Assembly (NCBI RefSeq): GCF_003334255.1
Contig: NZ_QOWU01000056.1
Reading direction: 5' to 3' (one strand)
Length of the DNA: 38,759 nucleotides
Origin: Escherichia coli
GTDB lineage: Bacteria; Pseudomonadota; Gammaproteobacteria; Enterobacterales; Enterobacteriaceae
The translations under genes were made by a program, and so were the position numbers. Of this stretch, positions 15,514-20,289 are shown one piece after another. Under the pieces are notes generated by a model that was not told where the DNA came from, did not search any database, and saw only the letters and a program-made list of their open reading frames with translations. Positions within the stretch are counted from its first letter, which is position 1. Each line of letters starts with the position of its first letter.

Positions 15514-15529
15514 GTATACAGATCGTGCG

Positions 15530-15805
15530 ATCTACTGTGGATAACTCTGTCAGGAAGCTTGGATCAACCGGTAGTTATCCAAAGAACAACTGTTGTTCAG
15601 TTTTTGAGTTGTGTATAACCCCTCATTCTGATCCCAGCTTATACGGTCCAGGATCACCGATCATTCACAGTTAATGATCCTTTCCAGGTTGTTGATCTTA
15701 AAAGCCGGATCCTTGTTATCCACAGGGCAGTGCGATCCTAATAAGAGATCACAATAGAACAGATCTCTAAATAAATAGATCTTCTTTTTAATACCCAGGA
15801 TCCCA
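15530..15805. other. oriC: chromosomal replication origin oriC
   Basis: DnaA boxes R4 (15536..15544, TGTGGATAA), R3 (15575..15583, TTATCCAAA), R2 (15610..15618, TGTGTATAA), R5/M (15661..15669, TCATTCACA), R1 (15716..15724, TTATCCACA); three AT-rich 13-mers at 15738..15750, 15753..15765, 15769..15781; ~14 GATC sites in ~290 bp; BamHI site 15798..15803; mioC/gidA flanks. Confidence 0.97.
15738..15795. repeat. oriC DNA-unwinding element: three tandem 13-mers (GATCTnTTnTTTT family, here on minus strand) plus AT cluster
   Basis: CTAATAAGAGATC / AATAGAACAGATC / AAATAAATAGATC read directly from the sequence. Confidence 0.9.
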
Positions 15806-15891
15806 GGTCTTTCTCAAGCCGACAAAGTTGAGTAGAATCCACGGCCCGGGCTTCAATCCATTTTCATACCGCGTTATGCGAGGCAATCACC

Positions 15892-17781
15892 ATGTTTTAT
15901 CCGGATCCTTTTGACGTCATCATCATTGGCGGGGGTCATGCAGGCACCGAGGCCGCGATGGCCGCGGCGCGTATGGGTCAACAGACTCTGCTTTTGACAC
16001 ACAATATCGACACTCTGGGGCAGATGAGCTGCAACCCGGCGATCGGCGGTATTGGGAAGGGACATCTGGTAAAAGAAGTGGATGCACTCGGCGGTCTGAT
16101 GGCGAAAGCGATCGATCAGGCGGGTATCCAGTTTAGGATACTAAACGCAAGCAAAGGACCGGCGGTTCGCGCTACCCGAGCTCAGGCGGATCGTGTGCTC
16201 TACCGTCAGGCGGTACGTACGGCGCTGGAGAACCAACCGAACCTGATGATCTTCCAGCAGGCGGTTGAAGATCTTATTGTCGAAAACGATCGCGTGGTCG
16301 GTGCTGTTACCCAAATGGGACTGAAGTTCCGTGCCAAAGCCGTCGTGCTCACCGTTGGGACGTTCCTCGACGGTAAAATTCATATCGGTCTGGATAATTA
16401 CAGCGGTGGCCGTGCTGGTGATCCGCCGTCCATTCCGCTTTCTCGCCGTTTGCGTGAACTGCCGCTGCGCGTTGGTCGTCTGAAAACCGGGACACCACCG
16501 CGTATTGATGCTCGAACCATCGACTTTAGCGTACTGGCGCAACAGCATGGCGATAACCCAATGCCGGTATTCTCGTTTATGGGCAATGCGTCCCAGCATC
16601 CCCAGCAGGTGCCGTGTTATATCACTCATACCAACGAGAAAACCCATGATGTGATCCGCAGTAACCTCGATCGTAGCCCAATGTACGCAGGGGTGATCGA
16701 AGGTGTCGGCCCACGCTACTGCCCGTCGATCGAAGACAAAGTCATGCGCTTCGCCGACAGAAATCAGCATCAGATCTTCCTTGAACCGGAAGGACTGACC
16801 TCTAATGAAATTTATCCGAACGGTATCTCCACCAGCCTGCCGTTCGATGTGCAGATGCAAATCGTCCGCTCTATGCAGGGGATGGAAAACGCGAAGATCG
16901 TGCGTCCGGGTTATGCCATTGAGTATGACTTCTTCGATCCTCGCGACCTGAAACCGACGCTGGAGAGCAAGTTTATCCAGGGGCTGTTCTTTGCTGGTCA
17001 GATTAACGGCACTACCGGTTACGAAGAAGCCGCTGCGCAAGGTTTGCTGGCCGGTCTTAACGCTGCCCGTCTGTCTGCTGACAAAGAAGGTTGGGCTCCG
17101 GCACGTTCTCAGGCGTATCTCGGCGTACTAGTTGATGACCTGTGCACTTTAGGAACCAAAGAACCGTATCGTATGTTTACTTCGCGCGCAGAATATCGTC
17201 TGATGCTACGCGAAGATAATGCGGATCTGCGTTTGACTGAAATCGGTCGTGAACTGGGCCTGGTGGATGACGAACGTTGGGCGCGCTTTAACGAGAAACT
17301 TGAGAATATCGAGCATGAGCGTCAGCGTCTGAAATCGACCTGGGTAACCCCGTCGGCGGAAGCTGCAGCCGAAGTGAATGCTCACCTGACTGCGCCGCTT
17401 TCCCGTGAAGCCAGTGGTGAAGATCTGCTGCGTCGTCCGGAAATGACTTATGAAAAATTAACCACGCTGACGCCGTTTGCCCCTGCGTTGACAGACGAAC
17501 AGGCGGCGGAACAGGTTGAGATTCAGGTTAAATACGAAGGTTATATCGCGCGCCAGCAAGATGAGATCGAAAAGCAGCTGCGTAACGAGAACACCCTGCT
17601 ACCCGCGACACTGGATTACCGCCAGGTATCCGGTCTTTCTAACGAAGTGATCGCCAAACTTAACGATCACAAACCAGCCTCTATCGGCCAAGCTTCGCGT
17701 ATTTCTGGCGTCACGCCTGCGGCCATCTCCATTCTGCTGGTGTGGCTGAAAAAACAGGGTATGCTGCGTCGTAGCGCATAA
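15892..17781 (+). CDS. mnmG: tRNA uridine 5-carboxymethylaminomethyl modification enzyme MnmG (GidA)
   Basis: 629-aa ORF starting [22 protein letters not shown] (FAD-binding GxGxxG). Confidence 0.96.
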
Positions 17782-17844
17782 CGCATTAAAAATGCCTGGT
17801 AAGCACCCGCTTACCAGGCAACGCATCAAGAACAGGTAATCACC

Positions 17845-18468
17845 GTGCTCAACAAACTCTCCTTACTGCTGAAAGACGCAGGTATTTCGCTTACCGATCA
17901 CCAGAAAAACCAGCTTATTGCCTACGTGAATATGCTGCATAAATGGAACAAAGCGTACAACCTGACTTCGGTCCGCGATCCTAATGAGATGCTGGTACGC
18001 CATATTCTCGATAGCATTGTGGTGGCACCGTATCTGCAAGGTGAACGGTTTATCGATGTCGGCACCGGACCAGGACTGCCAGGCATTCCACTCTCTATCG
18101 TGCGTCCTGAAGCCCATTTCACTCTGTTGGATAGCCTTGGTAAACGCGTGCGTTTCCTTCGTCAGGTGCAACATGAGCTTAAACTGGAGAATATTGAACC
18201 AGTACAGAGCAGGGTAGAAGAGTTTCCTTCAGAGCCGCCATTTGATGGCGTAATTAGCCGCGCTTTTGCCTCTCTGAACGATATGGTGAGCTGGTGCCAC
18301 CATCTTCCTGGTGAGCAAGGCCGTTTCTACGCGCTGAAAGGGCAAATGCCGGAAGATGAAATCGCTTTGTTGCCCGAAGAATATCAGGTCGAATCAGTGG
18401 TTAAACTTCAGGTTCCAGCCCTGGATGGCGAACGTCATCTGGTGGTGATTAAAGCAAATAAAATTTAA
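17845..18468 (+). CDS. rsmG: 16S rRNA m7G527 methyltransferase RsmG (GidB)
   Basis: 207-aa ORF (GTG start) with SAM-binding motif [10 protein letters not shown]; downstream of mnmG. Confidence 0.95.
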
Positions 18469-18554
18469 TTTTTATCAAAAAAATCATAAAAAATTGACCG
18501 GTTAGACTGTTAACAACAACCAGGTTTTCTACTGATATAACTGGTTACATTTAA

Positions 18555-18600
18555 CGCCACGTTCACTCTTTTGCATCAACAAGATAACGTGGCTTTTTTT
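18555..18600 (+). terminator. rho-independent terminator after rsmG
   Basis: Stem GCCACGTT (18556..18563) / AACGTGGC (18586..18593) followed by a 7-T run. Confidence 0.65.
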
Positions 18601-18964
18601 GGTAAGCAGAAAATAAGTCATTAGTGAAAATATCAGTCTGCTAAAAATCGGCGCTAAGAACCATCATTGGCTGTTAAAACATTATTAAAAATGTCAATGG
18701 GTGGTTTTTGTTGTGTAAATGTCATTTATTAAAACAGTATCTGTTTTTAGACTGAAATATCATAAACTTGCAAAGGCATCATTTGCCAAGTAAATAAATA
18801 TGCTGTGCGCGAACATGCGCAATATGTGATCTGAAGCACGCTTTATCACCAGTGTTTACGCGTTATTTACAGTTTTTCATGATCGAACAGGGTTAGCAGA
18901 AAAGTCGCAATTGTATGCACTGGAAAAATATTTAAACATTTATTCACCTTTTGGCTACTTATTG

Positions 18965-18992
18965 TTTGAAATCACGGGGGCGCACCGTATAA
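18965..18992 (+). promoter_or_regulatory. atp (unc) operon major promoter upstream of atpI
   Basis: -35 TTGAAA (18965..18970), 16-bp spacer, -10 TATAAT (18987..18992), about 95 bp upstream of atpI. Confidence 0.7.
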
Positions 18993-19084
18993 TTTGACCG
19001 CTTTTTGATGCTTGACTCTAAGCCTTAAAGAAAGTTTTATACGACACGCGGCATACCTCGAAGGGAGCAGGAGTGAAAAACGTG

Positions 19085-20289
<1,205 letters not shown>

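Follow-up and report, generated by a model that had tools for sequence, protein, structure and literature searches.

The genes rsmG and atpI of Escherichia coli are separated by 616 bp of AT-rich DNA, and the question raised by this locus is what so long a spacer does upstream of the ATP synthase operon, atpIBEFHAGDC. This operon ranks with the most highly expressed of E. coli, and most accounts treat its transcription as simply controlled, chiefly by growth rate. We analysed the rsmG-atpI spacer within a 38,759 nt stretch of E. coli DNA (NCBI RefSeq assembly GCF_003334255.1, contig NZ_QOWU01000056.1), which is referred to as the window and whose positions are used throughout. With a G+C content of 35.7% compared with 51% for the window, the spacer is the longest stretch without a long open reading frame (ORF) in the whole 38.7 kb, and no feature is annotated inside it in either RefSeq or the curated NC_000913.3 record. 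The spacer of E. coli K-12 MG1655 shows 100% identity to positions 18469-19084; of 5426 complete E. coli genomes, 5425 carry a single copy of the spacer at 95-100% identity. A first-pass annotation of the window had described a long AT-rich non-coding spacer containing the gid terminator (18555..18600) and a near-consensus promoter (18965..18992). Our results agree with all three descriptions: the spacer has the length, composition and rank given above, the terminator is present as a sequence feature (a stem followed by seven T residues at 18556-18600), and the promoter matches the consensus at 11 of 12 positions, one position away from the coordinates given for it.

We consider it probable that the spacer regulates the atp promoter as a long region in which several factors act under a constraint of helical phase. 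The rsmG neighbourhood was taken from 80 species and the spacer was extracted where both flanking genes were present, which yielded an alignment of 62 Enterobacteriaceae sequences over 632 columns; counts out of 62 refer to this alignment. Spacer length was 612-621 bp in 61 of the 62 Enterobacteriaceae, from Escherichia to Klebsiella, Cedecea and Atlantibacter, and 597 bp in the remaining one; it was 711-825 bp in five Erwiniaceae, and the G+C content was 34-39% throughout the species compared. The promoter-proximal 160 bp were approximately 90-97% conserved, and farther upstream invariant blocks (lettered in Table 1) alternated with diverged segments. Blocks E (18611-18648), F (18672-18709) and I (18812-18845) showed 79-80% pairwise identity among distant pairs (79% for block E, which was 38 nt long in 62/62 sequences), whereas the segments between blocks showed 31-36%, against a random expectation of 25-27%.

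The distances between blocks were conserved in the DNA that we compared, and these features, their conservation and their spacing are direct observations. The segment 18773-18811 was 39 nt and the segment 18846-18922 was 77 nt in all 62 sequences, and gap columns were absent from 18752 to 19077. The distance from the CRP site to the -10 element was 161 bp in 62/62 sequences. In Erwiniaceae it was 160-161 bp, and two relatives whose AtpI identity is 60% and 47% had 161-162 bp, even where the spacer was only 364 bp long. These two distant relatives were reached via AtpI representatives and contig look-up; a word-indexed AtpI search gave close relatives only. Farther upstream, the distance from GAAAATAT to ATGTCAAT was 64-67 bp; of the 47 sequences scored for the distance from TTTAAC to GAAAATAT, 43 gave 75-77 bp and four gave 65-66 bp. 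Blocks C, E, F and I and the promoter persist in Erwiniaceae, where the extra DNA lies mostly right after rsmG, at the site of those genomes' own terminators. The only internal change in that family was 10-12 bp between blocks H and I. ATGTCAAT lies 145-146 bp from the CRP site in Erwiniaceae and in the sequence L084, as opposed to 133-135 bp in Enterobacteriaceae. This difference, 11-12 bp in Erwiniaceae, amounts to approximately one helical turn and fits a face-of-helix constraint. As a control, we examined a neighbouring gap in the same genomes. The gene order in the window is mioC, oriC, mnmG (15892-17781), rsmG (17845-18468), atpI (19085-19465) and atpB, and the mnmG-rsmG gap (17782-17844; 63 bp in E. 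coli) varied from 53 to 118 bp, with a 4-bp gene overlap in two species.

Two of the invariant blocks coincide with protein binding reported in publications. To place published sites, window position w was taken as 3941525 - w in NC_000913.3 and as 3939548 - w in U00096.2, the two differing by a 1977-bp shift. The CRP site in block I agrees with 8 of the 10 core positions of TGTGA-N6-TCACA, and a match with no more than two mismatches was found at the same column in 62/62 sequences. Within the atpIBEFHAGDC/gidB spacer, Shimada et al. (2011) reported a genomic-SELEX (systematic evolution of ligands by exponential enrichment) peak for CRP; its box, CGTGCTTCAGATCACA, is at 3.92072 Mb, which corresponds to window 18825-18840. 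The same study found an atpI promoter fragment (primers 18566-19084) to be less active in a crp mutant, a result that concerns the whole fragment and not a site-specific mutation. Footprint-seq data in a 2026 preprint place taTGTGAtctgaaGCACGctt at 3922697 and give it an inferred in vitro dissociation constant of 2.2 nM. The centre of the site, at 18832.5, falls within approximately 1 bp of the in-phase series -61.5 minus n x 10.5, counted from the predicted transcription start site (TSS) at 19000.

The ArcA box forms the left part of block F. Its two repeats, TGTTA at 18672 and TATTA at 18683, have the arrangement of ArcA operator repeats, and the TGTTAA sequence is invariant in the 62 sequences. 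In the supplement of Park et al. (2013; PMC3798270), the ArcA box ctgttaaaacattattaa is listed as motif 3920874(-) with a score of 13 bits, at window 18671-18688, and the chromatin immunoprecipitation (ChIP) peaks for atpI, by ChIP-chip and ChIP-seq, are at 3920795 and 3920826 (U00096.2), or window 18753 and 18722. The peaks lie 40-80 bp from the box, with an enrichment of 3.2-3.3. Binding of H-NS has also been published: Panyukov and Ozoline (2013; PMC3661553) list an H-NS-bound 'promoter island' at atpI/rsmG, window 18370-18809. On its minus strand, block F (18671-18697) also reads as TTGACA-15-TAACAT in 43 of the 62 species, with a score of up to 10.2, and as TAACAG instead of TAACAT in E. 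coli. The pair might act as a leftward promoter that overlaps the ArcA box, but its 15-bp spacer is poor.

The 18600..18960 interval had initially been given no assigned function, and this description did not hold: the interval contains the CRP site (18825-18840) and the ArcA box (18671-18688), and the H-NS island extends into it as far as 18809. Nor is conservation limited to the known atp promoters, as 132 of its 361 columns have a majority of at least 90% across the 62 sequences and 85 have a majority of at least 98%.

The main atp promoter is the only sigma-70 consensus match in 18300-19300, and in a position-weight scan of the 62 aligned species it was the top-scoring promoter and the only one present in 62/62. 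From its -10 element, the TSS is predicted near 19000. Mapping in the 1980s reportedly placed the atp start 73 nt before GTG 19073, in agreement with this prediction; none of the TSS tables examined contains the position. Directly upstream of the -35 element is an A/T-rich block, which is kept in relatives with 47-60% AtpI identity. The block does not constitute a canonical UP element: the -59 to -38 region (18941-18962) is TATTCACCTTTTGGCTACTTAT, and the invariant A/T-rich part lies at -78 to -56. No conserved match to the strict Fis consensus was found in a consensus scan of the 62 sequences, and matches to the FNR, IHF and DnaA consensus sequences were weak or overlapped the promoter. An ArcA-like box on the minus strand at 18934-18948 (approximately -59) was matched in 35 of the 62 species, and an FNR-like sequence, TTGTTTGAAATCAC (18962-18975), lies over the -35 element with two or fewer mismatches in 43 of the 62. 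Ravcheev et al. (2007) referred to candidate sites for FNR and ArcA upstream of atp that were conserved and unpublished; these are probably the two sequences just described.

Table 1. Positions of features identified in and around the conserved blocks of the rsmG-atpI spacer (window coordinates; distances are from the predicted TSS)
Feature	Position	Strand	Description
rsmG-atpI spacer	18469-19084		616 bp, 35.7% G+C
Block A	18472-18482		TTATCAAAAAA, directly 3' of the rsmG stop codon
Block B	18509-18517		TGTTAACAA, single ArcA-half-site-like motif
Blocks C-D	18550-18588		Four motifs, TTAAC / TnAC / TTnTC / TAAC, at exactly 11-bp spacing
rsmG intrinsic terminator	18556-18600	+	Stem GCCACGTT/AACGTGGC, then T7
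Block E	18611-18648		aaaatAgTcAac...GAAAATATCAG.ctGCTAAAAaT
ArcA box	18671-18688	+	CTGTTAAAACATTATTAA, two direct repeats 11 bp apart; centre approximately -320
Block F, remainder	18689-18709		Invariant ATGTCAAT (18691-18698) and GGTTTTT (18703-18709)
Block H	18756-18772		aataTCA.aa.gaTgaa; IHF-like core 18758-18770
Weak promoter-like pair	18768-18804	+	TTGCAA (18768-18773)-17-TAAATA (18791-18796), read from the sequence
CRP site	18825-18840		TGTGATCTGAAGCACG, within block I (18812-18845); centre approximately -167.5
Block J	18855-18878		tTT.cgcg..aTTtGCa.TTTTg, inside the 18846-18922 segment
A/T-rich block upstream of -35	18923-18965	+	GAAAAATATTTAAACATTTATTCACCTTTTGGCTACTTATTG, UP-element-like; approximately 95% column conservation
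Main atp promoter	18966-18993	+	-35 TTGAAA (18966-18971), 16-bp spacer, -10 TATAAT (18988-18993)
atp 5' untranslated region	19000-19084	+	Shine-Dalgarno GGAGCAGGAG; approximately 90-97% conserved

The arrangement suggests how the spacer might work. The mnmG-rsmG transcript would have its 3' end within the first ~130 bp, in E. coli at the terminator at 18556-18600, and the DNA from ~18509 to 19084 would make up a long cis-regulatory region acting on the main sigma-70 promoter of atpIBEFHAGDC. Several DNA-binding proteins would occupy fixed positions within this region, with CRP at approximately -167.5 acting as an activator, ArcA at approximately -320 exerting anaerobic control and H-NS on the AT-rich upstream part; at least four further invariant blocks, besides the CRP and ArcA sites, would belong to the same region. 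We place the proteins on defined faces of the helix because the distances between blocks are held within 1-2 bp, the DNA between them is near random, and the change between families is approximately one turn. Proteins so arranged would allow the upstream DNA, by bending or looping, to join RNA polymerase in one stereospecific complex, and the complex would set atp transcription by carbon source, oxygen and growth rate. We infer that the distal sites act on the atp promoter through such a phased higher-order complex.

Several observations weigh against this interpretation. Bacterial regulators seldom bind as far upstream as the CRP site at -167.5 and the ArcA box at -320, and the sole neutral control for the rate of insertion and deletion is one short neighbouring gap, mnmG-rsmG. 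Among the entries listed in the table of Romero et al. (2014), there is none near 3920548, the predicted main atp start, and the supplements of SMRT-Cappable-seq and Kim 2012 have no entries for the spacer. The Romero supplement does contain two weak 5' ends enriched by tobacco acid pyrophosphatase (TAP), at window 18639 and 18799-18804 (3920744-3920749 for the latter, U00096.2); both are class II, that is, not linked to the leading edge of transcription. If these ends are taken as starts, some of the sites could serve other promoters. The spacer is a standard landing pad in which 7-kb insertions are tolerated, and so the distal part is not essential in the laboratory. A natural insertion is also present in the genome of UMNF18, where an IS91-family element at ~18793 (a transposase and a hypothetical coding sequence, ~1.8 kb; L083 3325-5150) separates block H from the CRP site; this is the only split spacer among the 5426 genomes. 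Finally, the spectrum over the spacer showed no global AA/TT periodicity of 10-11 bp, so intrinsic curvature is not the cause of the spacing, and phased A-tract curvature was rejected on the basis of this missing peak.

One alternative is that the middle of the spacer contains an independent small gene, either a small RNA (sRNA) transcribed from ~18639 or a small or leader peptide beginning at ATG 18691 (MS[IM]KGF...), which would explain blocks E-G. The TAP-enriched 5' end at 18639 is directly downstream of the invariant GAAAATAT, and ATG 18691 is invariant in 62/62 sequences and present in 4 of 5 Erwiniaceae, with the first six codons similar between species. The ORF that follows, however, is only 6-26 amino acids long and stops at differing places, and block G is conserved even past its end. 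Its third codon positions are no less conserved than the first and second, with no periodicity, and there is no Shine-Dalgarno sequence upstream of the ATG. For an RNA gene, no conserved hairpin or terminator was found downstream of 18639, and an all-against-all pair search of the 62 sequences revealed no stacked covarying helix at fixed columns, only A/T/G-U noise; this lack of covarying pairs means that a large structured RNA is not the reason for the fixed spacer lengths. A search of positions 17500-20000 against Rfam at a permissive threshold returned only two chance-level matches, both to eukaryotic families, the curated K-12 record annotates nothing in the spacer, and the published Term-seq tables examined contain no 3' end within it. 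We rejected the small ORF at ATG 18691 for its variable length and missing codon periodicity; an sRNA gene is not supported, for want of a family, covariation or a conserved terminator in the spacer, and we regard a small gene here as unlikely. The first-pass annotation had likewise raised the prospect of sRNAs or small ORFs, for which we found no conserved structure, Rfam family or coding signal. It had correctly discounted the 61- and 74-amino-acid ORFs of the region: both have internal stops in all but four or five of 67 species, and we judge them spurious because they are interrupted in ~92-94% of those species.

A second alternative moves the constraint from the atp operon to the chromosome, with the fixed-spacing array acting as a platform for a nucleoid or replication protein and tied to its place 2.4 kb from oriC. 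The neighbouring mioC-mnmG gap (15514-15891), which contains oriC, has the same pattern of blocks and fixed spacers and measures 375-381 bp in the same species and 458-463 bp in Erwiniaceae. H-NS binding has been published for the rsmG-atpI spacer, and one DnaA-box-like sequence with an 8/9 match, TTATTCACC (18940-18948), occurs in 57 of the 62 species. This DnaA-like box is single, weak and located in the promoter-proximal block; the spacer holds no DnaA-box array, and the one conserved GATC lies inside the CRP site. Moreover, CRP and ArcA, whose binding to two of the blocks has been published, are ordinary regulators of metabolism, it is to the atp -10 element that the spacing is tightest, and the spacer tolerates 7-kb insertions. 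We consider a chromosome-level platform very unlikely.

Least credible of all is a 'promoter island' in the full sense, AT-rich, horizontally acquired, rich in cryptic starts, silenced by H-NS and without specific function: atpI/rsmG (3920739, 440 bp) is among the 78 islands of Panyukov and Ozoline (PMC3661553), with H-NS binding from two studies, and short RNAs from the spacer were reported by the same (Ozoline) group, but the flanking genes are core genes, the sequence blocks and length are conserved in Enterobacteriaceae, Erwiniaceae and beyond, a sigma-70 scan found few promoter-like sites in the spacer, and the short RNAs sit in the terminator U-tract, where they are more simply explained as rsmG 3'-end fragments. 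Deep conservation between core genes is the opposite of recent acquisition, and a horizontal origin of the spacer is largely refuted by these data.

The terminator lies near the rsmG end of the spacer; rsmG itself ends at 18468. It consists of an 8-bp stem, GCCACGUU/AACGUGGC (18556-18563 / 18586-18593), with an inner extension, and the hairpin stands directly 5' of seven U residues (18594-18600), as in an intrinsic terminator. The predicted fold has a free energy of -14.9 kcal/mol (z = -3.0 compared with shuffled sequences). A simple terminator scanner missed this hairpin because its loop limit was 3-8 nt. The T-run is present at this place in some genera only. Short RNAs have been published for the 'atpI/rsmG intergenic space'; their minus-strand positions, 3922927-3922928, convert to window 18597-18598, inside the U-tract, and we read them as rsmG 3'-end fragments.

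The blocks around the terminator are also conserved. Block A shows at least 82% smoothed conservation across the 62 sequences, and block B, with the consensus tgTtaAaAa, lies at fixed distances from blocks A and C. Blocks C-D overlap the E. coli terminator hairpin, and their conserved C residues fall in alignment columns 96, 107, 118 and 129; the TTACATTTAAC of these blocks is kept in Erwiniaceae, as is the core of block E. From the sequence pattern, blocks C-D may possibly form a multi-repeat site for a regulator of the OmpR/ArcA type, which we offer as a lead and not as a result; ArcA-type regulators use the same 11-bp spacing. Between the ArcA and CRP sites, the IHF-like WATCAANNNNTTR was found with at most one mismatch at the block H column in 32 of the 62 species, and the weak promoter-like pair, which is followed by the published TAP-enriched 5' end at 18799-18804, was not conserved.

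At the other end of the spacer, the atp 5' untranslated region includes a second promoter-like pair, TTGACT-17-TTTTAT (19012-19040), in 62/62 species; it could be a minor downstream promoter, or be kept for the untranslated region itself. Published Term-seq tables place a strong RNA 3' end at NC_000913.3 3922387(-), window 19138, which is 53 nt into atpI at about codon 18. An RNA running from the atp promoter to this end would be short, ~140 nt; the local fold near 19138 was not unusually stable (z = +1.3). The spacer ends at ATG 19085, the RefSeq start of atpI. A mechanical ORF call starts at GTG 19073, which would make AtpI 130 amino acids long, and this triplet is GTA in most species. The 126-amino-acid RefSeq product is supported because ATG 19085 is conserved and GTG 19073 is mostly GTA elsewhere.

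Much of what the spacer contains was known already, namely the terminator, the promoter and the published binding of CRP, ArcA and H-NS; our analysis adds the fixed-spacing block architecture and the invariant motifs. Returning to a phased regulatory region for atp, a stronger version of it can be stated tentatively, as a possibility that we hold to be on balance doubtful. The ~530 bp upstream of the atp promoter would form one enhanceosome-like stereospecific assembly, with a geometry frozen since before the Enterobacteriaceae and Erwiniaceae split. The CRP site at -167.5 and the ArcA box at -320 would be only two of its parts, and GAAAATATCAG..GCTAAAAAT, ATGTCAAT..GGTTTTT, the 11-bp TTAAC array and ATTTGCA.TTTT would bind factors not yet linked to ATP synthase, giving growth-rate control.

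Should the distal sites really work together as a phased complex, atp would offer an example, rare in bacteria, of promoter regulation that acts over a long range and depends on geometry, and the four or more invariant motifs would be ready-made baits for new regulators. There is also a practical consequence. Insertions at the landing pad come between the promoter and the conserved sites for CRP and ArcA, and may alter atp regulation even though the site is widely used as 'neutral'.

Among known systems, the first comparison is with rrnB P1, a growth-rate-regulated promoter with an UP element and phased Fis sites. Both rrnB P1 and the atp promoter have near-consensus hexamers with a sub-optimal 16-bp spacer and an invariant A/T-rich block directly upstream, both have upstream protein sites at a fixed helical phase, and both drive a very highly expressed operon linked to growth rate. 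They differ in that the A/T-rich block of atp lies at approximately -78 to -56, whereas a canonical UP element spans -59 to -38, and in that atp has no conserved strict Fis match, has sites extending to -320 and beyond, and has CRP and ArcA as identified regulators.

Distal and tandem CRP-dependent promoters of class I and class III, such as acs P2 and malE/malK, offer a second comparison, with class I sites ranging from -61.5 to approximately -103.5. Like these promoters, atp has a high-affinity and near in-phase CRP site, and its activity is lower in a crp mutant. Unlike class I promoters, the atp site at -167.5 is far beyond the usual range, and its action would require the intervening DNA to bend; unlike tandem CRP promoters, atp has no second, promoter-proximal CRP site that is conserved.

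The resemblance to multi-repeat ArcA operators (PMC3798270) lies in the TGTTA/TATTA repeats placed 11 bp apart near the ArcA ChIP peak, and may extend to the four TTAAC-like repeats spaced 11 bp apart at 18550-18588 and to the promoter-side ArcA-like box. In contrast to those operators, enrichment at atp is low (3.2-3.3), the 13-bit score is modest, and the box is 320 bp upstream instead of over the promoter.

The spacer shares with oriC a series of conserved blocks separated by variable spacers of fixed length, and the same conservation of overall length in the same genomes (the oriC gap measures 375-381 bp and the rsmG-atpI gap 612-621 bp). It differs from oriC in having no DnaA-box array, AT-rich 13-mers or GATC cluster; it is not known to function in replication, and the anchor of its spacing is the promoter. 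As for the promoter islands (PMC3661553), the spacer resembles them in being listed as one of the 78 and in being AT-rich and bound by H-NS. Unlike them, the rsmG-atpI spacer is not tied to horizontally acquired DNA: it is deeply conserved and carries sites for specific regulators.

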